DNA of 35,753 nucleotides from a virus (Duplodnaviria > Caudoviricetes), in IMG/VR virus record IMGVR_UViG_3300031578_000173, positions 1 to 35,753 of that record. The stretch is one strand, 5' to 3'. Positions 8,461 through 30,374 of the stretch are shown here, in pieces. The notes beneath the pieces were generated by a model. It ran no database searches. It saw only the letters and a list, made by a program, of their open reading frames with translations, and had not been told where the DNA came from. The number at the start of each line of letters is the position of its first letter. Positions within the stretch are counted from its first letter, which is position 1. The position numbers and the translations under genes are program-made.

Positions 8461-8661
8461 ATGTTGACTCCAGAGGAACGGTTGAACCGGATCCGATCTA
8501 TCATCCGACGGGTCGAATCTGAGATGGACTCTCCCGTGTGCGATCAGCTACCATTGCTTCGTTCTGCGTTTGTGGAGATAATCCAGGCGGTGGGCCCTCA
8601 GTGCAGCGGGGCTCGGAAGGTGGATCCCCATGGGCGACGGCACGATAGAAAAGCAACCTAA
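8461..8661 (+). CDS. hypothetical protein
   Basis: 66-aa ORF tiling between neighbours. Confidence 0.5.
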   Translation: MLTPEERLNRIRSIIRRVESEMDSPVCDQLPLLRSAFVEIIQAVGPQCSGARKVDPHGRRHDRKAT

Positions 8662-12727: not shown

Positions 12728-13803
12728 TGAAAGATCACATCAGGACGAAGAGCACCGTAAAACTGCCGTCCTTGTATTTGAATTCGAAACTATTCCATCG
12801 TCCGTGCAGGGACGATCGCGATACTACGAATATCGGAGGCCACAACAAAGGCCTCCCCGATCCACAATTTGAGTCACTCGAACCTGACGAAGATGAGCTG
12901 TCCGTTTCTAAGGGATCTGTTTCTGATCTCGAAATGGTCAACAAAGAGAAGTGGGACGACGGAACGACAGTGGTACACAGAAAGTCCCCTTTTCCGGCGG
13001 AGAGAAAACCAGTCGTTTCTAGCAAGCTTCATGACGCTGCCTCCGTCGAACATGTTCCTCTTTCTTCCTTGAGAGGTTCTCAATCTACGGTTGCAGAGCA
13101 TGGGGTGCAGCAGCACTTGGACAATCCTCCTTCCGCCTCTGCCGATCTTCCTATGGTCTATCGAACTCCTGAAGGGACCAACCATATCGCTGACGGTCAC
13201 CATCGACTCGCCGCTGCGCATCTGCGTGGTGACAAAACAGCAAAGGTTAAAGTTGTGGACCTTGGAAGTAGCGCCACTCGGAAAGCGATTCGTACGCTGG
13301 AGATGATCAAGGCTGGGGCGGCACAGGAGTCTGGTGAGTCCTGGATGCCTCAACCCGGGAAGCAGCGGAAGAGGGAGTACGACAGCAGCTTCCACAGGGA
13401 CGCCCAACCTGGGATCTCTGGGGGCGCCACTCCAGATCTCCCGGAACGTGGACGGGATTGGCACGGTACCGTACCTGGGGTTCCCGACGAGCCCGGGGCT
13501 CAGGGGAGCAAGATCGAGGACGAGCTTGATCACCCTCCAGCGAACTTGGTTGATGACAAATCTGACGCCAAGACGGTGCTCGAGGAGAAGAACGCGGAAG
13601 CAAAGAAGGCTCTTGCAGCGGCCCCTAGGTTTAGCCCGGGGCCGTTCATAGCGCCACCAGAGAGAGATTTTCTGCGCACGAAGGGGTGGTCGGACGAGGA
13701 CATCGAGAGGGGTGACAGACCGATGCCTCCGCGTCTGAGGGCAGAGTTTAACAGGTGGTTGACGTCCACCGTTCGAAAGTCGATTGAGAGGTTGGTACGG
13801 TGA
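12727..13803 (+). CDS. protein with central ParB/Sulfiredoxin N-terminal (ParBc) domain
   Basis: VPLSSLRGSQSTV...LPMVYR...IADGHHRLAAAHLRG...VKVV at about 13045-13260; flanks are disordered. Confidence 0.8.
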   Translation: MKDHIRTKSTVKLPSLYLNSKLFHRPCRDDRDTTNIGGHNKGLPDPQFESLEPDEDELSVSKGSVSDLEMVNKEKWDDGTTVVHRKSPFPAERKPVVSSKLHDAASVEHVPLSSLRGSQSTVAEHGVQQHLDNPPSASADLPMVYRTPEGTNHIADGHHRLAAAHLRGDKTAKVKVVDLGSSATRKAIRTLEMIKAGAAQESGESWMPQPGKQRKREYDSSFHRDAQPGISGGATPDLPERGRDWHGTVPGVPDEPGAQGSKIEDELDHPPANLVDDKSDAKTVLEEKNAEAKKALAAAPRFSPGPFIAPPERDFLRTKGWSDEDIERGDRPMPPRLRAEFNRWLTSTVRKSIERLVR

Positions 13804-15836
13804 CCGCCAAAGCTGCTGTGAACTACCTGGAGCTGGGAAAGTCGATCTCAGCCATGACCAGGCCAGACGACATCTTTTCAGCCGTCCAGGAGCTGAGGCA
13901 GATGACGTCACACCTCCCCGCTATGATAAAGGCGGATGATCCAATGCGCGGGATCAGTGGGGAGAAACCAGCGCGTGGACCCAGGGCGGTTTTTTTCGAT
14001 CCCCTTAGCCTGCAGTACTCGCTAGGGTACAAAGATCGACGGTATAGCCTGACGTACGACACGCTCCGCCGGATTTCCCATCAGGTCTCAATCATCGCGT
14101 CGATCATCAATACTCGAATCGCTCAGATCGCTTCCTTCTGTGAGCCGTACCGATTGACGAAGTCACTGGGGTTCCGGATCAAGCATAAGAGTCCCGATCA
14201 CCTGACGTCAGACTCGGAGCGGGAGTTCATCGAGCACCTTGAGGCGTTTGTCTTGAGTTGTGGTGAACCAGGCAGATCGAATCCGTTCATTCGTATGAAG
14301 CGTCCCAAGTTCGAGACGTTTCTGAAGTCGATCGTACGGGACACGCTTACGTTCGACCAACTGGGATTCGAGATCGTACCTCGTCGTGACAAGATCCCGT
14401 TCGAGTTCTGGGCCACGGATGCTGCCACTCTCAGGATCGCCTCTCCCGATCGCGACACCAGTTCTCATTTCAGCCACCATTGGCGTACTCCTTTAACGCC
14501 GACACTGCAGCCAGGGCGGTTCGATAACCTGTATGCGGGGGAGAGGTACGGAGATCGTTGGCCTGACAGCAACGAGAGAGCTGCGAGCTTCGTTCAAATT
14601 GTCAACGGGCAGATTGAGAACATCTACTCCAATGATGAGATGGCGTTCGGGGTTCGTAACCCCAGAACGGACATCTACATCCAGGGATACGGTTACGGTG
14701 AGCTGGAGCAGCTCATCACGATCGTAACGTCGATCATCTATGCCGAGGAGTACAATCGGCGTTTCTTCTCTCAGGGTGCGAACCCCAAAGGGCTCCTCAA
14801 CTTCAAGGGAGACAATTGGACTCCAGATCAGCTTGAGGGCTTCAAGCGTCAGTGGATTGCTCAGGTAGCGGGAACTGAGAACGCCTGGAAGACCCCCATC
14901 ACCCAGTCAGAGGGCATTGAATGGATCGACCTCCAGAGGTCGAACCAGGAGATGGGGTACCAGGGGTGGTTGGAGTATCTGATTAAGATCACTTGTGGTG
15001 TGTATCTCATCGATCCGGCGGAGATCAACTTCGACCTCCATGGGGGAGTTCAGCAAACCCCTCTGTTCGAGTCGTCCCAGGAATGGAAGCTCAAGGCGTC
15101 TCGTGATCGCGGGTTGAAGCCCCTTCTTCGATTCATCGCGGGCTTGATCAACGAATACATCATCGATAAGATCGACGATCATTTCATGTTCGAGTTCGCT
15201 GGTCTTGACGAGCTGACCGAACAAGAGAAGCACGAGTTGATCAAGGAGCAGATCGCTAGCTACAAGACGCTGAATGAGGCGAGGCGTGAACTGGACTTGC
15301 CGGAGATTCAGGGTGGTATCGGAGAGCTTCCTTTGAATCCGACTCTGGTCCAACTCCTTCAGATGCAGCAGCAGCGAGAAGACATGCTGAAGCAGCAGGA
15401 GGAGCAGAAGCAGCAGGAGGAAATGCAAGCTCAGCAACAGGGAGCGGAACAACAGCAGCAAGAACAGCAGGAGCCCCCCGACCCCGAGAAGGAACAGAAG
15501 GTTCGTCACGCGGAGGACAAGCATCCGCTCGAGATGGAGCTTCTTCAGCAGAAGGTGCAGCAAAGTGATCAGCAGATGGGCGGCGTTCCTGGTGCTCCGA
15601 TGGGGGCAGAAGGTGTAGCACCATCAGAAGGCGGATCGCCTCAAGAGGCAGTGCCAGGAGGAGCACCACCAGAAGGAGCAACGCCCCAAGGACCGGATGG
15701 TATGCCTCCCGAAGAGGCGTTGCCGCCGGGTCCCCCACCGCGTCCACAAGGTGATTCGAAGAAGCAGTATGCTGCCTTGTTCGGTAAGTCGATCACGTAT
15801 GACGACTTCATCGACTTCATGAGGAGTAGACGATGA
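13800..15836 (+). CDS. phage portal protein with Q/P-rich C-terminal extension
   Basis: RNPRTD...YGYGELE...YNRRFFSQGANPKGLL...LEGFKRQW...IDPAEINF...SRDRGLKPLLRFI...TLNEARRELDLP; SPO1/Twort-type portal motifs. Confidence 0.92.
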   Translation: MTAKAAVNYLELGKSISAMTRPDDIFSAVQELRQMTSHLPAMIKADDPMRGISGEKPARGPRAVFFDPLSLQYSLGYKDRRYSLTYDTLRRISHQVSIIASIINTRIAQIASFCEPYRLTKSLGFRIKHKSPDHLTSDSEREFIEHLEAFVLSCGEPGRSNPFIRMKRPKFETFLKSIVRDTLTFDQLGFEIVPRRDKIPFEFWATDAATLRIASPDRDTSSHFSHHWRTPLTPTLQPGRFDNLYAGERYGDRWPDSNERAASFVQIVNGQIENIYSNDEMAFGVRNPRTDIYIQGYGYGELEQLITIVTSIIYAEEYNRRFFSQGANPKGLLNFKGDNWTPDQLEGFKRQWIAQVAGTENAWKTPITQSEGIEWIDLQRSNQEMGYQGWLEYLIKITCGVYLIDPAEINFDLHGGVQQTPLFESSQEWKLKASRDRGLKPLLRFIAGLINEYIIDKIDDHFMFEFAGLDELTEQEKHELIKEQIASYKTLNEARRELDLPEIQGGIGELPLNPTLVQLLQMQQQREDMLKQQEEQKQQEEMQAQQQGAEQQQQEQQEPPDPEKEQKVRHAEDKHPLEMELLQQKVQQSDQQMGGVPGAPMGAEGVAPSEGGSPQEAVPGGAPPEGATPQGPDGMPPEEALPPGPPPRPQGDSKKQYAALFGKSITYDDFIDFMRSRR

Positions 15837-17605: not shown

Positions 17606-17617
17606 GCGGAGGAACCG

Positions 17618-18367
17618 ATGAGTTTCGAACGGCAAAGAATTGGGCTATTCGTGTCCGGCGAAACTCGTCGGGGGGCGCCTCTGTTCGTCCGTTTGAGCCC
17701 AACCGATCTTCGGAAAGCTGTGGGACGGGACCGTATTCCCGGGGGCCTGGCCGACGATAAGTGTCCTGGGTCTTTTGATCCCCAGGCTGTGAAGGTTGGA
17801 GCCAAGGTGGAGCGGGAGCATTCGTCTGATCCCGCCATACAAGAGGAGATCACTCGGGATCACCTGACGGAGGACAAGGAATACTACAAGAAGCTGGCCA
17901 GGATGGAGGGAGATTCAAAAAAGGTGATCGACAAAGGTGCCGCCAAAAACCTGGCTCGCAAGGTCAATTTTGGATCTCCGGAACCGTTTGTCCACCACTC
18001 CATGACGAAGCCCTCTGTTGACTTTTCGAAGCCCAAGGCGGCAAAGAATCAACAGGAAGCACAAAAGGCGATTCCGGGTCAGGTGAGTGCCAGTGATCCA
18101 TCTGTGACCCAGCCTAGGGTTTCTAACCCGCAGGCCGAGCAGAACAAAGTGAATGCAGCCGGACACTACATGCTGGCAGATCACTTCAGTCGTCAGCCTG
18201 GGCCCGAGGCCCAGGCCAAGGTCAAGTTTCACAACGATCAGTTTCATGCCCATCTTCAAGCAGGGCACAAACCGGAGGCACCGCATTTCGAAAGAGCCCG
18301 GTACCAGATGCCGAAGCATGTGGCCTCTGCTCTCGGGAAGTCAGACGCTTTGTACGTTAGACTCTAG
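17618..18367 (+). CDS. putative head-associated protein with DUF5661-like segment
   Basis: GAKVEREH...EITRDHLTEDKEYYKKL resembles, from memory, the phage DUF5661 motif. GGAGGA RBS. Confidence 0.7.
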   Translation: MSFERQRIGLFVSGETRRGAPLFVRLSPTDLRKAVGRDRIPGGLADDKCPGSFDPQAVKVGAKVEREHSSDPAIQEEITRDHLTEDKEYYKKLARMEGDSKKVIDKGAAKNLARKVNFGSPEPFVHHSMTKPSVDFSKPKAAKNQQEAQKAIPGQVSASDPSVTQPRVSNPQAEQNKVNAAGHYMLADHFSRQPGPEAQAKVKFHNDQFHAHLQAGHKPEAPHFERARYQMPKHVASALGKSDALYVRL

Positions 18368-18381
18368 CCTAGGAGAATTCT

Positions 18382-18630
18382 ATGAAGCCGCTTATGATCT
18401 TTGTTGTTGCCCTCACCCTGATTTCAGTGTTCGGTTGCAGTTCCGACGATCCGAAAGTAGACTTCGCCGTGGACGGAGGCGTATCGGATGTCGTGGTGGC
18501 GGACACATCTTTCGACGTTGTCGAGGTTCTGGACGCCGCAGATGCAGGTGTGGCCGACGAAGCAGTCACGGACAGTTCCGATGATGGGGAAGTTGTCGAC
18601 GCTGTCGTGGACACGACCCCGTCTGAGTAA
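18382..18630 (+). CDS. small acidic lipoprotein
   Basis: MKPLMIFVVALTLISVFG-C signal peptide II/lipobox followed by a D/V-rich tail. AGGAGA RBS. Confidence 0.75.
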   Translation: MKPLMIFVVALTLISVFGCSSDDPKVDFAVDGGVSDVVVADTSFDVVEVLDAADAGVADEAVTDSSDDGEVVDAVVDTTPSE

Positions 18631-18641
18631 GGAGTTCACCA

Positions 18642-19121
18642 ATGTCGAACAACCCATTTTCTGGCCGTGTACCTCTCAATCTCCGGAAGAGCGGGGCGGA
18701 GGAAGTGATCAAGTCGGCCACCAGCTACCGACCCGGTGAGACTCACAACCCTCGGGTGAGAGATCAGTACACCGATCCCCACTTGGCTCCAAGGAACGTG
18801 GGTTGTACGCCGCTGCGTCGGTACCCCAATGGGAAGCTGGACGTGAAGTATGTGGCGTCGGCGATCATCGATCTCATTCACAAAGCCCAGGACATCGGGA
18901 AGTTGACGGAGTTCGAGAAGGCGCTCCTGACGGTGATCTTGCCGAAGCAGTTCCAGTTTCACGGGATGGATGCACGCCTGGCGGGCACGCATGCTCATCT
19001 CTCCGACGAAGAGAAGATTCTGGTCGCGATGGTGGTCAGTGGTCATCTCAAGGAGGAGGAGAACTGGAACGCCGGAGCCGGAGGCGGTAGTGTCCCGGGA
19101 CGTCACACCACCCGTAGTTAG
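18642..19121 (+). CDS. hypothetical head-module protein
   Basis: 159 aa, AAGGAG RBS. Confidence 0.75.
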   Translation: MSNNPFSGRVPLNLRKSGAEEVIKSATSYRPGETHNPRVRDQYTDPHLAPRNVGCTPLRRYPNGKLDVKYVASAIIDLIHKAQDIGKLTEFEKALLTVILPKQFQFHGMDARLAGTHAHLSDEEKILVAMVVSGHLKEEENWNAGAGGGSVPGRHTTRS

Positions 19122-19329
19122 CATCTCTGTTCCTGTCGATCGCCTTGATGACCTCTACGAGGCGATCGACAAGGCAGAGAAGAAAGACCTCCCTGGTGGT
19201 TCCCGGGAGCAGGAGGATTTCTTCGTCCAGCAGAATGCAGCTACGAAGAAGATGGGGAGTATTGTGGGGGAGACGTATGACGCCATGGCAAAAAGCCTGG
19301 CGTCTGAAATTGCGAAGGTCCTGAAGTGA
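19090..19329 (+). CDS. hypothetical head-module protein
   Basis: GTG start after GGAGG, in frame with the tracked 18970..19329 ORF. Confidence 0.6.
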   Translation: MSRDVTPPVVSISVPVDRLDDLYEAIDKAEKKDLPGGSREQEDFFVQQNAATKKMGSIVGETYDAMAKSLASEIAKVLK

Positions 19330-19472
19330 TCAAGACAGATCTCACGGCAGAGGGTCGTCGCGTTTTGAAGATGCTCGTGGCCAAGTACGGCATGGCTGAG
19401 GACAAGGCTCTTCAGTTGTTGAAGGATGGTGGTGCAGCACTTGCCGTTGCACTGCTGGCCATCACAAGGTAG
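19326..19472 (+). CDS. small hypothetical protein (48 aa)
   Basis: Own translation MIKTDLTAEGRRVLKMLVAKYG...ALLAITR. GTGA overlap; fills the gap and is below the ORF-track cutoff. Confidence 0.55.
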   Translation: MIKTDLTAEGRRVLKMLVAKYGMAEDKALQLLKDGGAALAVALLAITR

Positions 19473-19479
19473 ATCGACT

Positions 19480-20562
19480 ATGACCAGAGCTGACATGATC
19501 GGTCCCCGTCCTCTTCGGCCCGCGGCCAATCCCCCGCTCGCCATCGACAGCCAGGTTCACTATCGTGGAGAGCATTCCGCGCCAATGAGCCGATCTGGAA
19601 TGGTTGGAAGCGTGATGCCTGGTTGTCGGCCTGCTCCTCCTCCTCCGCGTCCACAACCAGCGTTGGTCATCAGGGACGACCTGTCGAAGTCGTTGTTCAG
19701 TGACGACTCGATGATCAAGGCCCACAGCGAGATCTTGTCTCGTCTGCGTTCCATGGTTGGCAGGGCGCCACATGATTCCCATCTGGGATCTCCCAAGCCG
19801 AGGGCTGGGAGGAAGTCGGGGGGCACCGATGTTATGTCCTCTGGAGAGTTTAGAGGATCGGATTTCTCCCCTAGTGGGGCCCCTCCTATTGATGTTAGTA
19901 CCCCAAAGCATGAACATGCACGGCTCCAAGCGAAACAGGTTCACTTGCAAGATCTGATGACTCATCACCAGAACGCTGGTCATCATCCGGATCATCCAGA
20001 CGTCAGAGGACATGCCGAGGCTTTGGAGTCTGTAACGAGCAAGATCAAAAACTTGGAAGCAGCTGGACATACATCTGGCCCTGAGCATCACGGGGACTGG
20101 ATGAGCCATCTGGTGGCAAATCCAAAGAGCGAGCATGCAGGCGGAAATACAGACGCTACCCTTTCGGCTCACTTCGCTATGCTCAGACCAGAGAAACAAC
20201 AGCAGCGCAAGGAGATGGGTGTTTCCACTGTCCGGCGGCACCTACCTCGAACGAAGGAAGTTCCCGCAACGCGTGCTACGGCATCCCCTTCCTCGGAGAA
20301 GGAAACCAGGGTCATGCCCAAGCCTGATGCCCCCACGCGCAGCGTCTCAACCGGTGGTCCTCAGCTGTCTCTCATGCGCTCGATGAGGGCTCTTCTGGAC
20401 ATGGCGAAGTCCAAAGAGAAGGGAGACAACTGGATCAGTGAGAAGATCAGGTTGCTCATGCATGAGGGGAAGCCTCAGAAGCAGGCAATCGCAATCGCCC
20501 ACAGCATGGCCGGGCGCTCTCAGGTGAAGAAGTCAAGTCCACCTCTGATCGTCACGGCGTAG
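19480..20562 (+). CDS. His-rich disordered protein with short conserved-looking C-terminal module
   Basis: Start MTRAD. The C-terminal ISEKIRLLMHEGKPQKQAIAIAHSMAG resembles a small, widespread phage domain. Confidence 0.7.
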   Translation: MTRADMIGPRPLRPAANPPLAIDSQVHYRGEHSAPMSRSGMVGSVMPGCRPAPPPPRPQPALVIRDDLSKSLFSDDSMIKAHSEILSRLRSMVGRAPHDSHLGSPKPRAGRKSGGTDVMSSGEFRGSDFSPSGAPPIDVSTPKHEHARLQAKQVHLQDLMTHHQNAGHHPDHPDVRGHAEALESVTSKIKNLEAAGHTSGPEHHGDWMSHLVANPKSEHAGGNTDATLSAHFAMLRPEKQQQRKEMGVSTVRRHLPRTKEVPATRATASPSSEKETRVMPKPDAPTRSVSTGGPQLSLMRSMRALLDMAKSKEKGDNWISEKIRLLMHEGKPQKQAIAIAHSMAGRSQVKKSSPPLIVTA

Positions 20563-20580
20563 AGTTTGGGTTGTGGCCCA

Positions 20581-21759
20581 ATGGCGATCCTCACCAAGGA
20601 ACAGCTCGACAAGATCCGGGAGATCGTACAGCGCCATGTGAGTTGGTTCATCTGGCGTCTGTTCGGGGATGAGTTTGCTAGTTCCGATCCTTCTAAGGTC
20701 ACTGCCTCGAAGCATATTCAAGATCAGCTGCCGGTGTCGCTTACGAAGCTTTCTTTCGTCCTAGGACGCGAAGAAGCTCTCATGAAGGAGTCGGAGTGGG
20801 GGTCCTACACCTGGGACAACCTCGCCGAGGCTGCTGCCAAGCAGCTCACGCCTGTGGAGAAGCTGCAGGTTCAGGCGGCTGCCCTCTCGGCCTATTCGAA
20901 GTACCGTCGCCTAGGAGAGGACATCTCCAACGGTCTCTTCTCCCGTTTGGCAGATGAGACTAACCAGGCTGTGTCAGAGGGTCAGGTCCGGGGCATCATC
21001 CAGGACAAGATCGAGTTTGGTACGGAGACCACTCGCAAATACAGCGATGTTGCTAACGACCTATCTGGGGCTCTGAAGGAGAACAAACGGAATTGGACCC
21101 GAGTCGCGTCGACAGAGATGCACCAGGCGCGTCAGCAGGGGGTCGCCTCAGCGATCATCAACAAGGTCGACATCTACGAGCACGGTGAGGGTCCAGACAG
21201 TCTGGTTACTGTTGTACCAGCACCGGATGCGTGCATAGACTGCAACCGTTTGTACTTGAGTCGATCTGGGAACCCGAAGATATTCAGGCTATCGGAGCTG
21301 ATGGGTAATGCAGGATCAAACTATCAGCGACCGTGGAGAGAACACGCTCGGCCTGTCGTTCCACCACTTCACCCCCACTGCTTCTGCCGGTTGAGGTACG
21401 TGCCGCCGGGCTGGGGATGGAACAAAGAGGGGAGATTTACGTTGACCGATCCCAAAGCAGCATTCCCCGAGGTAGCCAAGAGCGAACCCCTCTCCAAAGG
21501 CATCGACCAGAACGCGCATTCGTTGCTGCACGCATCTAATGCAACGCTTCCGACGCGTGAGTACCTGATGCAGATCGAGGACCCTAAGGAATTGGAGCAC
21601 ATCGAGAGGCGTCTGAAGAAGCTGGAACAGCTCTATGTTCATGATGAGAAGATCCATACGCGTATTTCAGACCTGCTGCACTACGCTCGCGGTCTACACT
21701 TCCATATGCACATGACCGGACAGGTCACTCCTCCTGGAACGGAGAGCGACAATGGGTAA
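20581..21759 (+). CDS. MuF / SPP1 gp7-like head morphogenesis (minor head) protein
   Basis: RVASTEMHQARQQG...DACIDC...PPLHPHCFCRL. Confidence 0.8.
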   Translation: MAILTKEQLDKIREIVQRHVSWFIWRLFGDEFASSDPSKVTASKHIQDQLPVSLTKLSFVLGREEALMKESEWGSYTWDNLAEAAAKQLTPVEKLQVQAAALSAYSKYRRLGEDISNGLFSRLADETNQAVSEGQVRGIIQDKIEFGTETTRKYSDVANDLSGALKENKRNWTRVASTEMHQARQQGVASAIINKVDIYEHGEGPDSLVTVVPAPDACIDCNRLYLSRSGNPKIFRLSELMGNAGSNYQRPWREHARPVVPPLHPHCFCRLRYVPPGWGWNKEGRFTLTDPKAAFPEVAKSEPLSKGIDQNAHSLLHASNATLPTREYLMQIEDPKELEHIERRLKKLEQLYVHDEKIHTRISDLLHYARGLHFHMHMTGQVTPPGTESDNG

Positions 21760-24700
21760 GCTCCAGCTGATCGATGACATGATCTCCAAAGCTGATGACG
21801 AGTTTCGGGGCGGCGACCCTGAGGAGATCCGTCTGAAGAGGGAAGAGAAGGAGCTGGGGAAGGCTGTGAAGAAGACCCAACACGCTCCTGAAGGGCAGAA
21901 AGAGGCCAAGCAGTACTTGAGCCGTCAGCGTCGGCGTGCAGAAACGGGTCAGCACAAGAATCCTGTATCCAAAGCGCAGCCAGGTGAGGAGGCGGGAGCG
22001 TTCCGCGGGGGTGATCCGGAGGAGATTCGGATCAAGCGGGAAGAGAAGATGCAGGAAATGCAGGACGCTGGGGAAATGGATGACACGGGGGACACAGGTG
22101 ACGAGGTTACCCAGGACGAAGTTGAGGAAGCTCAACAAGAAGACGAAATGAAGAAGGAGGACCAGGGCAAGTCTATGGTGGCGAAAGCCGCGTCGATCTT
22201 GTCACAGGATAACCTTCATGCAGCTGGTGGGAGCCAGGTGTCGCCTGTGGACACCTTCGGGGACTACAACCCGCACGACGCCAACGGTACTCCCCTTGCT
22301 GTCAAGTACGCGTACCGATCTGATGAGGGACCGGAGCCTTACTTCCAGCCTGGACCGATTCGTGCTGGCAAGAACCAGCACAAGGATTGGTCAGACGTGC
22401 TTGGGATCCGCATCCCTCTGACTGGTGAACCTGTGCAGTACCTGCGTCGTTTCCTGAAGCAGGGTCAAGTCGGGAAGATGGCCAAGGAAGCAGACCTGCT
22501 TGTTCGATCTCTTGAAGGTCAGACGGGGATCCTCTGGTGCTGGCGCCCTGATTTCTACGGCGGGGAGTTTTACAAGGGGATGGGTTCCGATCCCCAACCA
22601 GGGCACAAGTACGTCAAGCGTTGGTGGGATGGCGGACGCTGGAACTACGAGTACTCCGAAGGAGTGCATCCTGAGCGTCACGGTATCGCGCACTCGAACA
22701 ACCCTGCCGGGTATACGATGCCCGTTCACGAAGAGTTCAAAGGCGGATCAGCCGAGAATGCGTACCACCATTCAGCCCACATGCAGGTCGCAGAGGGAGG
22801 TTCGCACCCGGTCCAGGTTTGGGACAACAAGACGAATAAGCCCGTGAAGAAGATCCTGCATATGCCAGGGTCGAAGAGGGACAAGGAAGGGAATTTCATC
22901 CGAGGTGAGGATGGAATGCCCGAGTTGGGGCAGCGGTCGATCTTTTTGCGTGATCCTGGATCAGATCAGGGTGGTAAGAGGATTTCTTCTATCAGTGCTC
23001 TACGGAAGAAGTTGTCTCCCGTCACCACTGAGCATGACGCCCACGGGGATCCGTGGATGCATTGGAGATCAGCCGGATCGGGTGAGGGCAAGCCGTACGT
23101 CATGTTTGATCCCCGCAGCAAGCTGAACGCCAACCACCCCAAGGTAGGGGAATGGCATCAGCGTACGCGCAATGTCGACAATCTTCGTGAATGGGTTGCG
23201 AACCAGCAGTCGATGCAACGGATGATGAAGGATGAGGAGGAGCGGGCTGGGGACCATGTTCCTCCGGAGGAGCGGAAGTCGGCAAACGAATGGGAGCCGA
23301 CCCACCATCAGGTGTGGGAACCCCACCCTACTCAGCCTGGAATTATGCAGGTTAAGAGAGGTGAAGACGGAAATCCTGTGACGTCCGAGATGAAGACGTC
23401 CAACGCTCTGGAACGGGGAGATTTGGGACGGTGGAAGTGGGGCGATGAAGTAACCCGGCATTCTGTTCAGCACGAAGATGGAAGTACAAAACACATCGTC
23501 AAGCAGCAGCCTGTCTTGCAGTTTGACTCGATCCATGATCGAAACGACGTACAGTCCAAAGTGCTGCAGGAGAACTATGGTCCGTTGATGCGACAAGCCG
23601 AGAATCATCTGAGGGCCGCTGGGGTTTTGCGGATGGAGAATGGTCAGCTTTCTCCCGATTCCCACAGAGAAGCTGCTTCTCTGATCCATTCAGTAATGCC
23701 CAAGGCCTTTGAGAGGGCGGCGAATACCTACAACCCAAATCATCCATCCAAGGCACGATTCTCCACTTATTTGATCGGTCATGTCCGGAGAGAAATGCGG
23801 GATCAGATGCCTCATCTGATCGAGGATGAGGGTCGTCGGCAAGGGTGGACCGAGAGACGAGAAGCGGCCCGCTCCGGAATTCCTGTACCGAAGGAGGGTG
23901 AGGGGGCCGCTGAGATCACTGCGAAGCCAAAATCCAGTAAGACGGCACTGCAGACAGCCTACAGGGAAGGTGAACCTGGACTCGAGGGCCGGGAGTCCGG
24001 GGGGATGGCTCAGCGTTTTGAGTCACCCTCAGCTGGTGTAGAAGGGAAGCCCGAGGCAGAGACTCCTGAAGCACCAGAATCTCCCAAGGTGGATCAGTCT
24101 GCTCAACAGCAGTTCTTGAAACAGTTCCAGCAACAGCCACCAGAGTCACAGAAGCAACTTTTGGATCAGCTCAGATCTTCTGCCATAGGTCGGGAGAAGA
24201 TGTTCTCTGCCCATCCGCACATGCGTTACGTCTACGAGACACTGACCGGCGAGAAGACGAGAGCGTTGAAGTCTCTTGCTGAGGCGTGGCACGATGCGGC
24301 CGATGCTGTGGAGGCAGTTACCATTCTTCGGAAGGCGGCTGAGGACGAAGCCGATCTCGGTGCAAGCCCTGACATGAAGTATCTCTGGAGGGATGGTGAG
24401 CCTGGTGCTCACAAACACATGTGGGAGGACCCCCAAGGGAACGTGGTACGGGGAACGAATGCTCCGCAGGGTCATCCGCACCATGACCCAGAGGCTGGGC
24501 CTCCACAGGTTCATCCTCAGGAGCCTACTCCGGATGTTGCTCCACACATGTTCGACAATCGGGGGAGAAAGCTTCACCGCCCAGCTCCAGAGGGCGTGGA
24601 GACAGAGGGCAACCCAGGATACGATCCCGATATGATGCACTGGGCGCGGAAGTACACAGATCCAGAGACGGGGAACGAGGAGCATATTGCGTTTCACCGT

Positions 24701-26278
24701 GACCGCGCCAAGAACCATCGGTACGCGTTGAACGAAGATCTCCGGCAGGTGGACTCACAGCTCGAGAAGATCAGATCGTGGTACGGGAGCCTTTTCGAGA
24801 AGCCTGACCTGCGGTCCAAGGCTACGGGTCTTGTGCTGGCTCTGGTCGATCAGGGTAGGGCGATGCTGGATGGCCTCATGGGGATGCGCGTCAAGGACGT
24901 GTCGATCCATGGGAACACCTACAAGCTGTCGTACACTGATCCGGAAAGCGGTCCCCACACGGTGATGGTCGTTCTCGACTCCGCGGCGTCTGCTGTTCTC
25001 CATGCTCTGGCGCAGGGGAAGAAGGCCGTTGACCCTCTATTCGACGTGGAGGGACAGCCTCTGACTCGAGAAGAGGTGGCTCAGGCCCTGGATGAGAAGT
25101 TCGGAGTGACCCCGAAGCAGTTCCGGGTCTACCACGGCACGGAGCTGTTCTCGAAGGAGTTCCAGAGGCTGGTTTCGAGGACACCCAACCTGAAGCCAGA
25201 GATGCTTCCTCGCATCGCGGACCAGGCCTACGGTCGCGTGATGAGGATGCTGGGACATCAGAAGGTTGATGCCAAGACCGCACAGAAGATGTATGTGGAC
25301 CCCATCGTGGTGGAAGCCCTGTTCATGGCGGCAGTTCACCATCACGACGATGAGATCAACAAGAGCCTGGAGAAGTCCTACCGACTCCAGGGGAAGGTGA
25401 TCTTCCAGGGCCTGCCGGTGTCCATCGAGAACCGTAAGGGTTCTGTCCGTCGTTGGTATGATCCCCACGAGAAGCGTGAGGGCACCACGAAGATGCACCA
25501 CGCCTACGGTTACATCCGTGGGACGAAGGGCACAGACGGAGATCATGTCGACGTCTACCTTGGGCCCGACAAGAACTCCGACAAGGTGTTTGTGATCCAC
25601 CAGAAGAAGGCTCCTGCCTTCAAGGAGTTCGACGAAGACAAGTGCATGCTGGGGTTTGGCTCAGGTGCAGAAGCGAAGGCTGCATATATAAAGCAGTACG
25701 ACAAGCCTGGGTTCTTCGGCGGTATGACCCCGTTGTCTTTGGGCGACTTCAAGCGGAAGGTCGCGGCTACCAAGACGCGGCCTCAAATGATCAAGGCTTC
25801 TGGGTCTCAATACTGTTCCAAGTGCAACAAGGCTTGGGGTGAGTGTGATCACTCGAAGGAGATCGAAAAGTCGTTCAAAGGAAGTGCCGACGCCGGACCA
25901 ATCGTGTGGACTGTGTCCGTGTCGCACCCCGACCGAACTCCGGATGAGAGGTTGTTCGGTGAGTGGGTCCACAGCCATCCGATGCATGAGCATGATCAAC
26001 ATTGGGCTGCATTCAAGCAGGCCACGAAGGTAGAAGACCTACCGGAGCCAGCCGTGGATCGTGAGTACGCCCATGGCGGCAATGAGCCTATGCCGGATGA
26101 CAGTGATCTGGATGACGATGAAACGGGTCACCAACCACCCGCGGGAGCTGAGGTTCCACCAGCTCCAGATGATCTGGAAGGGGGGGATGACCTCGCAGGA
26201 GATCAGGGACTGGAACCTCCTGCTCCAGAGAAAGCTGCTAAGTCGATCATGGACGATCTTATGCGGATGGTCGGCTAA
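21752..26278 (+). CDS. 1508-aa polyvalent protein (sigma70 region-2-like + topoisomerase IB-like + inorganic pyrophosphatase-like segments)
   Basis: AFERAANTYNP...ARFSTYLIGHVRREM (~23560-23810); TPKQFRVYHGT...LGH...YVDP (~24640-25330); SIEN-x-KGS-x-R...YGYIRGTKGTDGDHVDVYLGP...FDEDKCMLGF (~25375-25765). Confidence 0.8.
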   Translation: MGKLQLIDDMISKADDEFRGGDPEEIRLKREEKELGKAVKKTQHAPEGQKEAKQYLSRQRRRAETGQHKNPVSKAQPGEEAGAFRGGDPEEIRIKREEKMQEMQDAGEMDDTGDTGDEVTQDEVEEAQQEDEMKKEDQGKSMVAKAASILSQDNLHAAGGSQVSPVDTFGDYNPHDANGTPLAVKYAYRSDEGPEPYFQPGPIRAGKNQHKDWSDVLGIRIPLTGEPVQYLRRFLKQGQVGKMAKEADLLVRSLEGQTGILWCWRPDFYGGEFYKGMGSDPQPGHKYVKRWWDGGRWNYEYSEGVHPERHGIAHSNNPAGYTMPVHEEFKGGSAENAYHHSAHMQVAEGGSHPVQVWDNKTNKPVKKILHMPGSKRDKEGNFIRGEDGMPELGQRSIFLRDPGSDQGGKRISSISALRKKLSPVTTEHDAHGDPWMHWRSAGSGEGKPYVMFDPRSKLNANHPKVGEWHQRTRNVDNLREWVANQQSMQRMMKDEEERAGDHVPPEERKSANEWEPTHHQVWEPHPTQPGIMQVKRGEDGNPVTSEMKTSNALERGDLGRWKWGDEVTRHSVQHEDGSTKHIVKQQPVLQFDSIHDRNDVQSKVLQENYGPLMRQAENHLRAAGVLRMENGQLSPDSHREAASLIHSVMPKAFERAANTYNPNHPSKARFSTYLIGHVRREMRDQMPHLIEDEGRRQGWTERREAARSGIPVPKEGEGAAEITAKPKSSKTALQTAYREGEPGLEGRESGGMAQRFESPSAGVEGKPEAETPEAPESPKVDQSAQQQFLKQFQQQPPESQKQLLDQLRSSAIGREKMFSAHPHMRYVYETLTGEKTRALKSLAEAWHDAADAVEAVTILRKAAEDEADLGASPDMKYLWRDGEPGAHKHMWEDPQGNVVRGTNAPQGHPHHDPEAGPPQVHPQEPTPDVAPHMFDNRGRKLHRPAPEGVETEGNPGYDPDMMHWARKYTDPETGNEEHIAFHRDRAKNHRYALNEDLRQVDSQLEKIRSWYGSLFEKPDLRSKATGLVLALVDQGRAMLDGLMGMRVKDVSIHGNTYKLSYTDPESGPHTVMVVLDSAASAVLHALAQGKKAVDPLFDVEGQPLTREEVAQALDEKFGVTPKQFRVYHGTELFSKEFQRLVSRTPNLKPEMLPRIADQAYGRVMRMLGHQKVDAKTAQKMYVDPIVVEALFMAAVHHHDDEINKSLEKSYRLQGKVIFQGLPVSIENRKGSVRRWYDPHEKREGTTKMHHAYGYIRGTKGTDGDHVDVYLGPDKNSDKVFVIHQKKAPAFKEFDEDKCMLGFGSGAEAKAAYIKQYDKPGFFGGMTPLSLGDFKRKVAATKTRPQMIKASGSQYCSKCNKAWGECDHSKEIEKSFKGSADAGPIVWTVSVSHPDRTPDERLFGEWVHSHPMHEHDQHWAAFKQATKVEDLPEPAVDREYAHGGNEPMPDDSDLDDDETGHQPPAGAEVPPAPDDLEGGDDLAGDQGLEPPAPEKAAKSIMDDLMRMVG

Positions 26279-26496
26279 TGGATCACTTGCTGACATGCAA
26301 GTGCGGCGAGGTCGTGGTCAAATCGGCCAACGGAACCACCAAGATTCGCAACAAGATGATGGTCTTCAAAGGGGGCCAAAGCTACGCGGTCTGCAAGGGG
26401 TGTGGAGCGGAGATCCCGGTCCCAGTGAAGCTGGAAGATGCTGAGATCAGTGGAATTGGCAGGCAACCACGCCTTTTCTTGCGGGATCGCGAATAA
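26278..26496 (+). CDS. small Zn-ribbon protein
   Basis: CKCG...CKGCG; TAATG overlap. Confidence 0.75.
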   Translation: MDHLLTCKCGEVVVKSANGTTKIRNKMMVFKGGQSYAVCKGCGAEIPVPVKLEDAEISGIGRQPRLFLRDRE

Positions 26497-26544: not shown

Positions 26545-26577
26545 CTCTAAAGTATCTGAAAACTGGATGACTCCAAC

Positions 26578-26619
26578 AAAGGGAGATCAGGCTTCGGCCT
26601 GGCCTCCCTTTTTCTGTTT
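26578..26619 (+). terminator. intrinsic terminator-like hairpin
   Basis: AAAGGGAG-ATC-AGGC-TTCG-GCCT-GGC-CTCCCTTT followed by TTCTGTTT; cUUCGg tetraloop. Confidence 0.7.
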
Positions 26620-26629
26620 CAGGAATCAC

Positions 26630-27589
26630 ATGCTGGATCTTCTCAGCGAAAGCGGATTCGAATTCTGGGTGCCCATCACCCTACAGAAATCGAAGACCGC
26701 CTCCGAGAGGGCAGACGGCAAAAGGTGGATCGAAGGCATTGCCTCCACCATAGATGTCGATCTTCAGAAAGAGATCGTTGAGCAGAACGGGATCGACTTC
26801 TCCTACTTCGTAAAGCACGGCTACTTCAACAACGACCACAAGCCTGGGTTCGAGAACAAGATCGGTGAGCCAACTGAGTGCCGCGTCACAGCCAAGGGTC
26901 TCTACGTCAAAGGCTTCCTCTACAAGGACAAGAAGGTTGCCAACGACGTTTGGGAGATGGCGAACTCGCTGGAGGCTTCCGGCGCCAAGCGCAAGCTTGG
27001 GTTCTCCATCCAAGGCAAGGTGCTGCGCCGGAACGGTAAGACGATCGTCAAGTGCTGGATTCAGGACATCGCGATCACTGCCGCTCCGATCAACACCAAC
27101 ACCTGGCTGGACGTAGTCAAGGGCCTCAACGCTCTTCCCCAGGACATGTGGTGTGATGAGAACGGTTGTTACCTTGTCACGCCCGACATCGCTTTCAAGT
27201 CGATGCGCGAGTCTGAAGGTAAGTGCTGCGGTGCATGTAACTGCTCTGGCGGTTCTCGAGATCAAGCACGCAAGGCGGCGCTGTCGATTCAAGAAGAAGG
27301 GATGGACCTCAGAAAGAGGGAGTCAGAGAAAGACGATCCCGAGAAAGCTCTGGCTGCCGGAAGTGATAGTGGGCGTGCTCTGACGGTTGAAAGCCTCGAA
27401 GGCCGGATGGCAGACCAGAACTTCGGGCGCACCGATCCCGAACACGAGAAGACCAGAAAATCGATAGTGCCTGATGTGCTGAGTTTCGAAGAGTCCGTTG
27501 CTTGGCTGCAGGCCTACAGAAATCTCTCTCAGCCCGAAGCCCACATCGTGGCCAAGGCTGTCTTTCACATGAACGGACTCATCAACTAG
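26630..27589 (+). CDS. prohead (capsid maturation) protease, HK97/SPO1-type
   Basis: IEGIAST...DLQKE...FNNDH...IGEP...GLYVKGFLY...LGFSIQG...IAITAAPIN gives the catalytic His and GFS Ser; lies between portal and capsid. Confidence 0.9.
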   Translation: MLDLLSESGFEFWVPITLQKSKTASERADGKRWIEGIASTIDVDLQKEIVEQNGIDFSYFVKHGYFNNDHKPGFENKIGEPTECRVTAKGLYVKGFLYKDKKVANDVWEMANSLEASGAKRKLGFSIQGKVLRRNGKTIVKCWIQDIAITAAPINTNTWLDVVKGLNALPQDMWCDENGCYLVTPDIAFKSMRESEGKCCGACNCSGGSRDQARKAALSIQEEGMDLRKRESEKDDPEKALAAGSDSGRALTVESLEGRMADQNFGRTDPEHEKTRKSIVPDVLSFEESVAWLQAYRNLSQPEAHIVAKAVFHMNGLIN

Positions 27590-27599
27590 GAGGATGAAA

Positions 27600-28574
27600 A
27601 TGGCGGACAAGGCCACGATCACGCAGGAGAGCTTCTACAAGAGCTTGTCCAAGCTCGAAGCACTGGCTGGCGGGGGGCAGGAAGATCTGGACAAGAGCCA
27701 GATCTGCACTGGTCCCAACAGCGAGAAGAAGGAATGGGCGGGTAGCCGCTGGAAGGACGTTCCCGGCGACGGACCCGGCGCGGACATGATCCGCCCCGAC
27801 GGCACCGACTACAACGAGCGCGGTGTCCGAAAGTCGATCCAGGAGAAGGTCGCGAAGGGTATCCCTCTCAGCTCGATCGAGCTGTCGCTCCTGAAGAGCG
27901 ACATGGAGAAGGCGGACAAGGACGACGACAAGGACGAGAAGGGCGAGAAGGAAGTCGAGTTCAAGTTCGGCAAGGGCCAGGGCGACGACGACGACAAGGA
28001 GAAGTACGCTCGCGAGATGGGCAAGTCCTTCGACGGCGCTGTCCAGGGCAGCGAGACCCTGCAGAAGGGCATCGAGGTCAGCCAGTTCCTGGCGGAGCTG
28101 AGCAAGGCCTTCGCAGCCGGTCTCGAGGGGATCGAGACCCGCGTCAACGCCAACATGGAGCAGATGGGTCAGCAGCTGTACTCCGTGCTGAGCGGCTTCG
28201 CTGGTGAGCAGGGCGAGTTCAACAAGTCGCTCGCTGATGCGCTGGTCAACATCGGTCACGGCGTGGCCGGGTCGATCCAGCAGGTCGAGCAGGTTTCCCA
28301 GCAGCCTGCCGGTCCTCCGCGTAGCCAGGGTCTCCAGATGGTGCCGGGCGGGCAGCAGGGTGCGCCACAGGGCTTCGTTCAGAAGTCTTTCGCGGGGCAG
28401 CAGCCGGGCGAGAACCTGTCCAAAGCGGTGGTCGCGGACGCTCTCACCGACATGCTCGAGAAGGGCGAGTCGGGGATCTCCCCGATCGAGATCATCAAGT
28501 TCGATACCACTGGAGAGCTTCGTCCCGACCTGCAGCAGCGGGTGGCGGCGCGAGTCCAGGGAGCTGGCCGCTAG
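27600..28574 (+). CDS. putative capsid scaffolding protein
   Basis: Lies between protease and major capsid protein; acidic/helical, strong codon bias, AGGAGG RBS, about 14 hydrophobic-x-K-[SAG] motifs. Confidence 0.7.
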   Translation: MADKATITQESFYKSLSKLEALAGGGQEDLDKSQICTGPNSEKKEWAGSRWKDVPGDGPGADMIRPDGTDYNERGVRKSIQEKVAKGIPLSSIELSLLKSDMEKADKDDDKDEKGEKEVEFKFGKGQGDDDDKEKYAREMGKSFDGAVQGSETLQKGIEVSQFLAELSKAFAAGLEGIETRVNANMEQMGQQLYSVLSGFAGEQGEFNKSLADALVNIGHGVAGSIQQVEQVSQQPAGPPRSQGLQMVPGGQQGAPQGFVQKSFAGQQPGENLSKAVVADALTDMLEKGESGISPIEIIKFDTTGELRPDLQQRVAARVQGAGR

Positions 28575-28639: not shown

Positions 28640-30079
28640 ATGTACGGACAGATCTCGTTGCGTCACTACGAGGGCCTGAATGGCTTCGGCACGGCCCCCG
28701 CAGGTGACGTCCATGAGTTGAGCAAGGCGCTCGAAGCGGGCTATCAGGTGGTCAACCAGACGGGCGGCAGCGCCCTGAGGGTGGAATCCCTGGAAGCCAG
28801 CCTCAAGGTGGTGTCGTACACCAACCACCACATCAAGATGTGGAAGAAGATCCCAAAGTCCCCAGCCTATTCCACGGTTGAGGAGTACAACCAGCTGATT
28901 TCGTACGGGAATAACGGATTCGCCTTCACTCAGGAAGGCGAGCTTCCTCCCAGCACCGACACGAGCTACGCGCGGCGCACGCAACTCGTGAAATTCATGG
29001 GGACAACCCGTGAGGTGACCCACCCGGCCACCCTGATCCACCCTGCCCATGGCGACATCATCGCGCTCGAAAACCAGAATGGTATCCTCTGGTTGCTGGA
29101 GCGCGTGGAGAACGCCCTCTTCACCGCCGACAGCTCCCTGGCCTTCGATGGCGAGGCAGAGCAGTGGGATGGGCTCGACGCCCTGATCGATCCCACCAGC
29201 TTCCTGGACCTCCAGGGTCAGCCGCTCTCCGAGACCCCGGTCGAAGAGGCGAGCAACATCCTGGTCGAGAACTACGCCTACCCGACGGACATGTTCCTCG
29301 GGACGCGTGTGCTCAGCGACCTCGTCAAGACCATGTACCCTCGCGAGCGCATCAGCCTTCCCGCGCCGGTCAACGGGGTCATCGGTCAGGCGATCAACTC
29401 GATGGCGACCCAGGCGGGCCACATCGAGTTCAATCCCGACGTCTTCATCAAGCGTCTCCCGTCGCCGCCCGCGGCGACCACCTCCCCGAACGCTCCGGCG
29501 ACTCCGGCTTCGATCACTTCGGCGATCTCCGGCGTCAACGGCGACTTCAACAAGGGCGCCCCGGCGGGGATCAACGAGTACGCTTTCGCGGTCACGGCCT
29601 GCAACCGTTTCGGCGAATCGGCTCCGGTCATCATCGTGGCCAACCAGGCCCTGTCCCAGGCGAACAAGGACGGCGGTCTTCACATCGATCTGACGATCAC
29701 CAACGCGGTCACGATCGGCGCGTTCCCGCCCGAGTACTTCCGGATTTACCGTTCGGCTCCGCTGGCTTCGGGTGCGGCGGTTCCGTCGGCGGTTGGCGCG
29801 TTCAGCCTGATCATGCAGGTTGCGGCGGCTTCGCAGGCTGCAAGTCCGGCGACGACGGTGGTGGCGGATGTCAACTTCCTGCTGCCGTTCACCAACATCG
29901 CCTACATGGGTGAGTTGACCCCGCAGGTCATCACCTTCCGTCAGCTCGCGCCGATGATGCGGCTCGATCTCGCGGTGCTCGCGCCCGCCTACAGGTGGCA
30001 GATCCTGCTCTACGGGACGCCGATCCTGTTCGCGGCACGCAAGTGGCTGCGCATGATCAACATCGGGCAGCTGACGTAG
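28640..30079 (+). CDS. major capsid protein, SPO1/Twort (Herelleviridae)-like
   Basis: LSKAL-x-AGY...GGSALRVESLE...IPKSPAYSTVEEY...EGELP...VKFMG...FTADSSL...WDGL, an inserted beta domain (YAFAVTACNRFGESAP) and LAPMMRLDLA...LLYG. Extreme GC3 bias. Confidence 0.92.
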   Translation: MYGQISLRHYEGLNGFGTAPAGDVHELSKALEAGYQVVNQTGGSALRVESLEASLKVVSYTNHHIKMWKKIPKSPAYSTVEEYNQLISYGNNGFAFTQEGELPPSTDTSYARRTQLVKFMGTTREVTHPATLIHPAHGDIIALENQNGILWLLERVENALFTADSSLAFDGEAEQWDGLDALIDPTSFLDLQGQPLSETPVEEASNILVENYAYPTDMFLGTRVLSDLVKTMYPRERISLPAPVNGVIGQAINSMATQAGHIEFNPDVFIKRLPSPPAATTSPNAPATPASITSAISGVNGDFNKGAPAGINEYAFAVTACNRFGESAPVIIVANQALSQANKDGGLHIDLTITNAVTIGAFPPEYFRIYRSAPLASGAAVPSAVGAFSLIMQVAAASQAASPATTVVADVNFLLPFTNIAYMGELTPQVITFRQLAPMMRLDLAVLAPAYRWQILLYGTPILFAARKWLRMINIGQLT

Positions 30080-30091
30080 TCGGAAGGACAA

Positions 30092-30169
30092 TCGTAGGTA
30101 CCCTCAGCCAGTACCTGCGACCCTCCTCGTGAGGGGAGGGCCCTTCGGGGCTCTCCCCTCCGGGTTTTT
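30092..30169 (+). terminator. double hairpin and intrinsic terminator after capsid gene
   Basis: TCGTAGGTAC/GTACCTGCGA stem, then GAGGGGAGGGCCC-TTCG-GGGCTCTCCCCTC (30131-30160) followed by CGGGTTTTT. Confidence 0.8.
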
Positions 30170-30374
30170 AGAATAGGTCCGCAAGTTTGCGGTGGGTGTG
30201 ATGTCCGAAGACGGCGACGAAATTAAGATCGACGACAGTAACCTGAAGGTCCACCAATTGGTGGATCGCAGGGGTCAGAAGTCGGCAAAAGGAAAGGGAT
30301 TAAGTAACCTTTTCCCGTTGACGGTTCAGGCGTCCATGACGCCGTTGGAAAAGGACCCTTGGAAGGATATGCCC

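Follow-up and report, generated by a model that had tools for sequence, protein, structure and literature searches.

A polyprotein encoded among the head genes of an uncultured SPO1-related phage, with a pyrophosphatase predicted to be nested in a topoisomerase IB-like fold

The virus record IMGVR_UViG_3300031578_000173 of IMG/VR comprises a 35,753-nucleotide stretch of an uncultured SPO1-related phage (Caudoviricetes), referred to here as the window. Its plus strand contains, among the head-assembly genes, an open reading frame (ORF) of 1508 amino acids (aa) at positions 21752-26278. A sequence-only reading had proposed that the product is a polyprotein in which domains like sigma region 2 (sigma-2), type IB topoisomerase (TopIB) and pyrophosphatase are each bracketed by lysine motifs, and that it releases an injected kit that melts promoters, relaxes supercoils and removes pyrophosphate to start early transcription. 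The question raised by the locus is whether these domains are there, how the chain would be cut, and which of the pieces could still work. Our analysis makes it rather probable that this is a head-module polyprotein that is packed and protease-cut, leaving three main pieces, with the pyrophosphatase (InPase) as the one working enzyme. For this gene the proposal that the kit is active does not stand, and it fits an intact sister clade better; what is unexpected is a nested layout bracketed by protease sites, together with the existence of an intact and a dead clade side by side.

Lysine motifs, predicted processing and a shared hairpin

A homologue search seeded with aa 880-1345 found 245 proteins, and the top 28 of these, this protein included, span the TopIB-like and InPase parts. 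These 28 make up the alignment to which conservation counts out of 28 or 27 refer; labels of the type P00xx denote proteins and L0xx the genomic loci compared. The Pfam families InPase and Topoisom_I were matched by all 28 homologues. AlphaFold models were used for aa 276-703 (predicted local distance difference test, pLDDT, 86.5) and aa 832-1453 (pLDDT 81.2). In agreement with the sequence-only reading, the ORF call returned the 1508-aa frame, and Pfam, Foldseek, VIA structure comparison and gene context supported a polyvalent head protein with three folds (InPase, TopIB and sigma region 2).

The lysines claimed at 24269, 24332, 25361, 25373 and 25793 are present, as are those of FYKG (K275, 22574) and IEKS (K1373, 25868). 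Defined as a hydrophobic residue, any residue, Lys and then Ser, Ala or Gly, the motif occurs 11 times in the protein versus 4.9 times in shuffled sequences, and 19 of 2000 shuffles reach 11. The 11 other head-module ORFs have 53 motifs versus 16.2 after shuffling (reached by none of 2000). The 326-aa scaffold has 14 copies (1.9 when shuffled), and the scaffold of phage SPO1L1 has 11 in 251 aa. The 17 left-arm ORFs contain 5 motifs versus 4.6 in shuffles, and the 11 other plus-strand ORFs are likewise at chance.

The motif is conserved at four junctions: before hairpin 1 (25/27), before the TopIB piece (27/28), at the passage from TopIB core to InPase (27/28) and after the InPase (27/28). Inside the domains of the homologues no copies were found in InPase (3282 aa in total), the C-terminal tail, the lead domain or the TopIB N-terminal region. 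The linkers at aa 1201-1212 and aa 1341-1355 have pLDDT values below 50. The capsid protein allows a comparison. PDB entry 5lii has 463 aa with VVKS at residues 22-25, and entry 9row has the same sequence with 439 aa, starting at Ser25; we take 5lii to be from Staphylococcus phage 812, and 9vel to be from SPO1. The LSKA of the window's capsid protein (aa 27-30, cut between K and A) aligns with the VVKS maturation site of this solved relative. Because the junction motifs are conserved and match the presumed capsid maturation site, processing and packaging appear likely, and cutting by the prohead protease after hydrophobic-x-Lys is the likely route as judged from the PDB deposits and motif conservation. 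The proposed processing at Lys followed by Ser, Ala or Gly is supported by a motif above chance, conserved junctions and the capsid match. The polyprotein resembles the prohead-protease substrates of the SPO1/Herelleviridae type, and the cognate protease (phrog_1028) and a capsid protein with a Lys-Ser/Ala site (phrog_752) are both present. ALKS (K840) was rejected as a conserved cut site; its Lys is found in 1/28 rows and its P3 residue is not hydrophobic.

A related basic beta-hairpin opens both large pieces, 10-14 residues past the predicted cut (hairpin 1 versus hairpin 2: hhalign probability 72.8, E 3.2e-5). A pattern blind to cut sites detected 34 distinct hairpins in the loci, 32 of them with a motif at most 30 aa upstream, compared with a background of 16-18%. 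Searched with a hairpin profile lacking the upstream residues, 1.84 billion proteins yielded 168; 150 of these were listed and 144 were new, some of them duplicating loci behind the profile. In the 144, the motif lies at most 30 aa upstream of 190 of 259 hairpin stretches and at most 30 aa downstream of 17 of 256 (background 20%). The cargo downstream of hairpins falls into 188 clusters, and 27 of 49 hairpin proteins scanned have Pfam families, for example ART, Nudix, RelA/SpoT, SNF2, methylase, ParB, zeta and MuF. The hairpin itself gave no convincing family match in Pfam and PHROG. Copies without the Lys motif, as in P0185, P0207, P0226, P0238, P0241, P0264 and others, are in many cases preceded by L-x-H close to the N-terminus and in two cases by L-x-E-A; the hairpin may also serve alongside head proteases with a different specificity.

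The pyrophosphatase and the TopIB-like fold around it

Pfam assigned aa 1209-1337 to InPase with E 4.8e-38 and 130.5 bits (curated cut-off 26.8), and Foldseek matched the region to the Mycobacterium tuberculosis pyrophosphatase 4z70, a family I enzyme (E 5.9e-4). Residues E1226, R1233, Y1252, D1262, D1267, D1294, E1295, D1296 and K1297 are conserved in 28/28 homologues, and D1264 in 25/28; the conserved acidic residues, of the metal-binding kind, presumably correspond one-to-one to residues of the Escherichia coli enzyme. InPase is likely an active pyrophosphatase-fold enzyme. For the family, both pyrophosphate clearing and the processing of nucleotides or nucleotide signals have been proposed as roles (PMC5512222). 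The same InPase family is present in a solved head protein, the portal-InPase fusion 9b41 (gp19 portal; E 3.7e-25); there InPase is fused to a portal, whereas here it sits inside a TopIB-like fold, with cut motifs on either side.

Three results place the InPase inside that fold. First, the VIA alignment of the model to TopIB reaches model residue 581, corresponding to aa 1412, which is past the InPase. Second, the core (aa 876-1201) and the tail (aa 1378-1436), folded as two separate chains, gave a complex score of 0.77 versus 0.00 for the best of three controls, with 94% contact agreement and a partner pLDDT of at least 80; 116 of 157 solved pairs attained the mark for this score, as did 2 of 215 mismatched ones. 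The modelled complex pairs tail residues 1386-1388 with the core strand at 1073-1074 and places the tail helices against aa 1188-1192. Third, and independently of the models, in seven of eight distinct relatives without InPase the tail follows 19-48 aa past the core. In 24/28 homologues the tail lies behind InPase, with other cargo of up to ~430 aa separating the two; the other four have no tail and stop at a short strand directly past the closing site, and for L010, L011 and L041 it is the next ORF that carries the tail. On these grounds the model has the InPase as an insertion inside the TopIB fold, with the tail (aa ~1380-1435) completing the domain.

The layout proposed earlier needs to be amended accordingly. 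An InPase fold with motifs at its ends does lie between LEKS and MIKA, but it is nested and not a separate segment. The TopIB-like part does not end at INKS-LEKS, because MIKA and IEKS are followed by its last strand and helices. The predicted sites fall in low-pLDDT linkers. The TopIB fold straddles the InPase and the motifs flanking it, so that one of the outcomes named beforehand as refuting the earlier reading is seen in part. The CxxC knuckle described before IEKS is present in this protein; its pattern is matched by 5/28 homologues and is therefore lineage-specific.

Pfam Topoisom_I covers aa 995-1179 (E 2.7e-8), and the model of aa 832-1453 matched TopIB structures with Foldseek E 4.5e-12 and VIA Z 20.7 (root-mean-square deviation, rmsd, 2.5-2.7; 216-218 residues aligned). 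A PDB search with the TopIB region as a single sequence gave nothing real, and the 28-row profile did find TopIB. The region in which an N-terminal clamp domain would be expected (aa 900-990) is conserved at 55%; the aligned VIA ranges begin at model residue 92-94 in three chains and at 155-157 in most, and a search of the ESM Atlas with aa 862-990 gave no usable match.

The catalytic pentad of poxvirus TopIB consists of R130, K167, R223, H265 and Y274, with Lys167 as general acid and Arg130 as a transition-state and leaving-group residue (PMC2943603, Table 1 for the pentad). The corresponding positions here are M1038, P1064, R1125, H1169 and Y1181. Thus three of the five are kept, and the Arg130 and Lys167 equivalents are lost; in the profile alignment variola K167 pairs with P1064, and the arginine of the Deinococcus FRVG motif with M1038. 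The sequence therefore speaks against the supercoil-relaxing enzyme proposed earlier, and TopIB in this copy is likely catalytically dead. The conservation of non-catalytic parts fits a retained binding role. With the Deinococcus (PDB 2f4q, 3m4a) and poxvirus enzymes the protein shares the catalytic-domain fold and the Arg223, His265 and Tyr274 equivalents; it differs from type IB topoisomerases in the two lost residues, in a fold interrupted by InPase and cut motifs, and in its fusion to a head polyprotein.

The full pentad is present in 6/28 homologues, and also in L013 and L041. A tree was built from a 43-row TopIB alignment that includes three cultured-phage and two plasmid TopIBs and leaves out eight locus ORFs duplicating stored proteins, three short ones and one plasmid TopIB that failed the profile cut. 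In the 24-row clade containing this protein (support 97/95), none of the rows has the full pentad, and its nearest relatives, the sister pair P0005/P0006 (88/65), have lost the tyrosine as well. Since the outside TopIBs keep the pentad residues, loss is the simpler direction than gain, for a tree that was not formally rooted. The annotation 'topoisomerase' carried by 22/28 homologues is on this evidence probably wrong as to activity.

More distant proteins of the head module that have a TopIB-like part but no InPase keep 0-2 of the five catalytic residues (L024:17194-18723, L032:7175-8428, L040:3918-6875, L045:11028-14174, L065:8026-10785 and L071:15145-16677), possibly a second, independent decay. 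At L046:2263-3165 a stand-alone 301-aa TopIB-like ORF lies between portal and InPase genes; it stops soon past the catalytic tyrosine motif and has no tail. Stand-alone TopIB genes are also found in PaBG and related jumbo phages (PMC7824862). The PaBG enzyme is the product of a gene of its own (562 aa), unlike the fused domain described here; that gene (L083:5356-7044) and the gene for the major head protein are on one strand, the former four genes further upstream.

The sigma-like piece and the readings weighed

No Pfam sigma family was found in this protein. Sigma70_r2 is matched by 5/28 homologues (best E 3.5e-4), and TIGR02937 matched P0002 with E 2.7e-4, below the NCBIfam cut-off; nothing named came above that cut-off. 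In VIA, 20 of 21 rows with Z of at least 5 are sigma factors or transcription complexes that contain one, the best with a middling Z of 6.4 (rmsd 3.9, 88 residues aligned) and 7d7d_F with Z 5.4, and the ESM Atlas gave a weak Sigma70_r2 lead (0.90, 33% of members). None of these lines is strong alone. Because sequence and modelled structure agree, we assign the segment to sigma region 2. Region-2-only phage sigmas exist, T4 gp55 being one. The likeness to sigma-70 region 2, T4 gp55 included, lies in the helical arrangement and the region 2.2-2.3 pattern; unlike sigma-70 factors, this domain shows no region 4, lacks the region 2.3 Trp, is joined to a beta-rich domain, and would be virion cargo.

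The sigma-2-like fold proposed earlier is thus upheld, but its own bracketing is not: a motif stands directly before it in 0/27 homologues and directly after it in 1/28, and the ~95 aa lie inside a 586-aa piece (aa 276-861). The outer sites FYKG and LRKA stand, and ALKS does not. The linker behind the domain is of low complexity. Among the 25 of 28 homologues listed, no Pfam region-4 family was found at E up to 0.5. Region 2.3 was compared in 27/28 rows (P0028 could not be anchored). It has two aromatics here (F and Y kept) and no Trp; in the six TopIB-intact homologues it has 5-7 aromatics including 2-3 Trp, and none of the other 21 rows has Trp. The absence of Trp and the loss of TopIB residues thus coincide across homologues. 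ECF sigmas, too, are not known to have the region 2.3 Trp pair. With no region 4 seen and without Trp in region 2.3, the promoter-melting role ascribed to this copy is doubtful. For the model of aa 276-703, Foldseek found no match at E up to 0.001 in its PDB and viral sets, and the beta-rich domain has a weak VIA match to a PH domain (Z 5.3, 50 residues). Mean identity among homologues is 27% for sigma-2, compared with 55% for the TopIB N-terminal region, 43% for its core and 54% for the tail.

The observed folds, gene context, motif conservation, two missing residues and position of InPase between core and tail can be joined into a model in which co-assembly, cutting, retention and ejection of hairpin-tagged pieces are the conjectured steps. 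The polyprotein would be packed into the prohead of an SPO1/Herelleviridae-like phage, and the phage's own prohead protease would cut after hydrophobic-x-Lys at K275, K861, K1204/K1208, K1348 and K1373. Piece 1 would be the hairpin-tagged beta-domain with the sigma-2-like part; piece 2 a hairpin-tagged TopIB-like unit which, lacking two catalytic residues, would bind DNA and not relax it; and piece 3 the likely active pyrophosphatase-fold enzyme. The latter would be excised from a surface loop, with core and tail remaining together as a two-chain unit. The pieces would stay in the capsid and be delivered with the DNA, and InPase may then remove pyrophosphate, or a nucleotide signal, at an early stage of infection. 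The ancestral form, still found in the sister clade, would probably have been a working sigma-2 and topoisomerase kit, from which sigma-2 and TopIB of this lineage would have decayed towards DNA-binding or polymerase-binding roles.

Several points weigh against this model. The motif is short and also occurs within folds, with 18 copies in 6064 aa of TopIB core and four in sigma-2; MPKA (K651), inside sigma-2, was rejected as a conserved cut site (K in 2/28 rows). The Herelleviridae cut site was not found stated in the literature searched, and the 439-aa deposit implies a capsid cut without proving one. The core-tail complex may have passed with the help of its likeness to solved TopIBs, and hhalign found no likeness between the tail and the C-termini of bacterial and phage TopIBs (0.24% and 0.06%, three-sequence alignments). 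The DNA-binding role proposed for the pseudo-TopIB piece is read from its fold, and residual chemistry may persist as R1125, H1169 and Y1181 are kept. Finally, the parallel decay of sigma-2 and TopIB comes from one clade split and counts as one event.

Four other readings were considered. That the pieces are structural inner-head proteins, building the prohead or organising DNA and then being retained or degraded, with enzyme-like folds as vestigial binders, appears unlikely. The acidic leader with its repeats and many cut motifs does recall a scaffold, and the N-terminal region and tail of TopIB stay conserved while catalytic residues are lost; against this, the catalytic-type residues of InPase are invariant in 28/28, and the same hairpin precedes domains of enzymes that act in the cell (ART, Nudix, RelA/SpoT, SNF2, methylase). 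An active kit in this very copy, with promoters melted, supercoils relaxed and pyrophosphate removed, we regard as quite unlikely. All three folds hold, the InPase residues are intact, three TopIB residues including the tyrosine are kept, and the six homologues as well as L013 and L041 have the full pentad, the six being also rich in Trp in region 2.3; this copy, however, lacks the Arg130 and Lys167 equivalents, to which catalytic roles are ascribed (PMC2943603), and shows neither region 4 nor a region 2.3 Trp. It is very unlikely that the pieces are delivered decoys serving counter-defence or takeover, sigma-2 blocking host sigma on core polymerase, dead TopIB shielding DNA and InPase destroying a nucleotide signal. 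Nucleotide-signal processing is among the InPase roles in PMC5512222, and poorly conserved sigma-2 and variable extra cargo would suit an arms race, but this reading differs from the preferred one in purpose only. That the protein is neither processed nor packaged and the motifs reflect composition is hardly credible: enrichment in this protein taken alone is modest, but the motif is conserved at four junctions, absent from InPase, tail and lead domain, not enriched outside the head module, and matched by the capsid site.

Returning to the packed and cut polyprotein, its closest parallels are the phage polyvalent proteins (Iyer et al. 2017, PMC5512222), which resemble it as large multidomain head-gene products beside MuF with PF18823, and which are predicted to be packaged and injected, as delivery is predicted here. 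Processing in that account concerns metallopeptidase autoproteolysis and P1 DarA and DdrB, in contrast to the head-protease Lys sites described above. In its main text 'sigma' does not occur and 'topoisomerase' occurs once; the supplements may list such fusions. Head-packaged cargo in general is treated in PMC9503650. Homologues bring further domains into the polyprotein, namely DUF5661, SAM lyase, ART-PolyVal and rhodanese. In T4, a capsid-targeting sequence is a leader on packaged proteins. The ejection proteins of SPN3US are trimmed by the prohead protease; in both T4 and SPN3US a head protease trims packaged proteins ejected with DNA (PMC10052503). The present protein differs in its Lys-based motif, in several predicted internal cuts per chain, and in a conserved hairpin after the cut and not just a removed leader.

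It is doubtful, though worth stating, that a large group of uncultured SPO1-like phages uses modular protease-released cargo with a shared N-terminal hairpin as handle and the TopIB loop as a cassette slot, a region-2-only sigma redirecting host polymerase, an intact clade injecting working topoisomerase, and this clade a pseudo-topoisomerase of two chains by which the incoming genome would be clamped or bridged. In the literature searched, no virion-delivered sigma-like factor, phage pseudo-topoisomerase or description of a sigma-2, TopIB and InPase architecture turned up. If packaged, the intact and dead clades of the same layout would be a natural pair to test what a tailed phage gains from injecting a topoisomerase. 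An enzyme nested in another domain's loop and a hairpin after the cut would provide sequence rules for predicting capsid cargo of uncultured phages, and the hairpin could be tested as a handle for bringing proteins into heads of the Herelleviridae type.

The head module and its relatives

The genes are ordered portal, MuF-like gene, polyprotein gene, 72-aa Cys protein (Zn72), maturation protease, scaffold and capsid (Table 1). The capsid protein shares 40-44% identity with its counterparts in Bacillus and Lysinibacillus phages including SPO1L1. In SPO1L1 itself the portal, protease, scaffold and capsid genes are adjacent, without such a cargo gene. Out of 186 confirmed matches 80 loci were kept, and 14 of these, besides the own contig, have the TopIB-plus-InPase form. 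Zn72, protease, scaffold and capsid follow downstream in 14/14 and the MuF-like gene precedes in 11/14; the remaining three loci end too early. The MuF-like protein had no direct Pfam match, and a profile of 38 of its homologues matched 9 of 11 PF04233-bearing proteins (E 1e-12 to 1e-9). Cultured phages searched gave no full-length relative and one record matching this protein's TopIB part; for P0020 they gave InPase or TopIB pieces only, with 0 of 473 records covering 80%. A search for shorter homologues of the TopIB-like part returned one partial protein.

Table 1. Features of the polyprotein gene and its head-module neighbours in the window
Feature	Positions	Strand	Basis
Portal protein	13800..15836	+	phrog_12 E 4.6e-49; PF04860
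MuF-like minor head protein	20566..21759	+	homologue profile
Head-module polyvalent protein, 1508 aa	21752..26278	+	ORF; 27 further TopIB-like + InPase proteins
Acidic leader, aa 1-145, four motif sites and two FRGGDP repeats; likely propeptide	21752..22186	+	sequence
Conserved lead domain, aa 146-275, fold not known, closed by FYK/G (K275)	22187..22576	+	comparison
Basic beta-hairpin 1, aa 286-303, opens piece predicted to be released after K275	22607..22660	+	model, profile comparison
Beta-rich domain, aa 305-500, without clear known fold	22664..23251	+	model pLDDT mostly >85
Sigma-region-2-like domain, aa 596-690	23537..23821	+	Pfam in homologues, VIA structure comparison
Poorly conserved linker ending at LRK/A (K861); 13% mean identity over aa 700-830	23849..24334	+	
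Basic beta-hairpin 2, aa 876-895, opens TopIB-like piece	24377..24436	+	hhalign to hairpin 1
TopIB-like N-terminal region and core, aa 900-1196	24449..25339	+	Pfam, Foldseek, VIA, residue alignment
INK/S and LEK/S (K1204, K1208), predicted cut sites in low-confidence linker	25355..25378	+	model, motif conservation
InPase (PF18823), predicted insertion in TopIB-like fold	25376..25771	+	Pfam, Foldseek, residue conservation
MIK/A (K1348), CxxC-x6-CxH knuckle (aa 1355-1367), IEK/S (K1373)	25787..25873	+	sequence
Tail, aa 1380-1435, last strand and helices of TopIB-like fold; predicted docked on core	25889..26056	+	model, comparison
72-aa protein with two CxC/CxxC (Zn72), between polyprotein and protease genes	26278..26496	+	syntenic in 14/14 related loci
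Head maturation protease, putative cutter	26567..27589	+	phrog_1028 E 1.6e-56
Scaffold protein, 326 aa, 14 motif copies	27594..28574	+	phrog_15087 E 0.0018
Major capsid protein, SPO1-like	28640..30079	+	phrog_752 E 5.7e-93

The FRGGDP-type leader repeat, 16 aa long, occurs twice in the acidic leader (21803-21850 and 22001-22048) and in one or two copies in 21/28 homologues. It lies on a separate upstream ORF in L011, L013 and L041, in which the lead domain is also encoded upstream as a separate ORF; the repeat is a candidate prohead-binding signal. The position of Zn72, which has no family match, is kept in many more distant loci too. In four loci the cargo slot also holds additional large ORFs, SNF2-type in two. 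Big ones lie between polyprotein and Zn72 in the TopIB-intact clade (L013:11754-16106, L041:13411-18807 and L010:6173-11872), two being SNF2-type helicases and one, of 1900 aa, having no Pfam match. At L041:5648-7048 a C39 peptidase domain is fused to the MuF-like protein.

Around the portal gene, at 11375-20562, lie six low-complexity ORFs (450, 359, 590, 249, 159 and 378 aa) that are rich in these Lys motifs and probably represent further processed head cargo. A weak ParB-like match was seen at 12724-13803, and DUF5661, which recurs inside polyprotein homologues too, at 17618-18367. Outside the head cluster, a 212-aa ORF at 8630-9268, with a predicted membrane segment, carries the Lys motif three times. 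A promoter and terminator scan gave a chance-level result. Just past the capsid gene, at 30131-30170, a strong stem-loop of 13 pairs followed by a T-run is a likely terminator.

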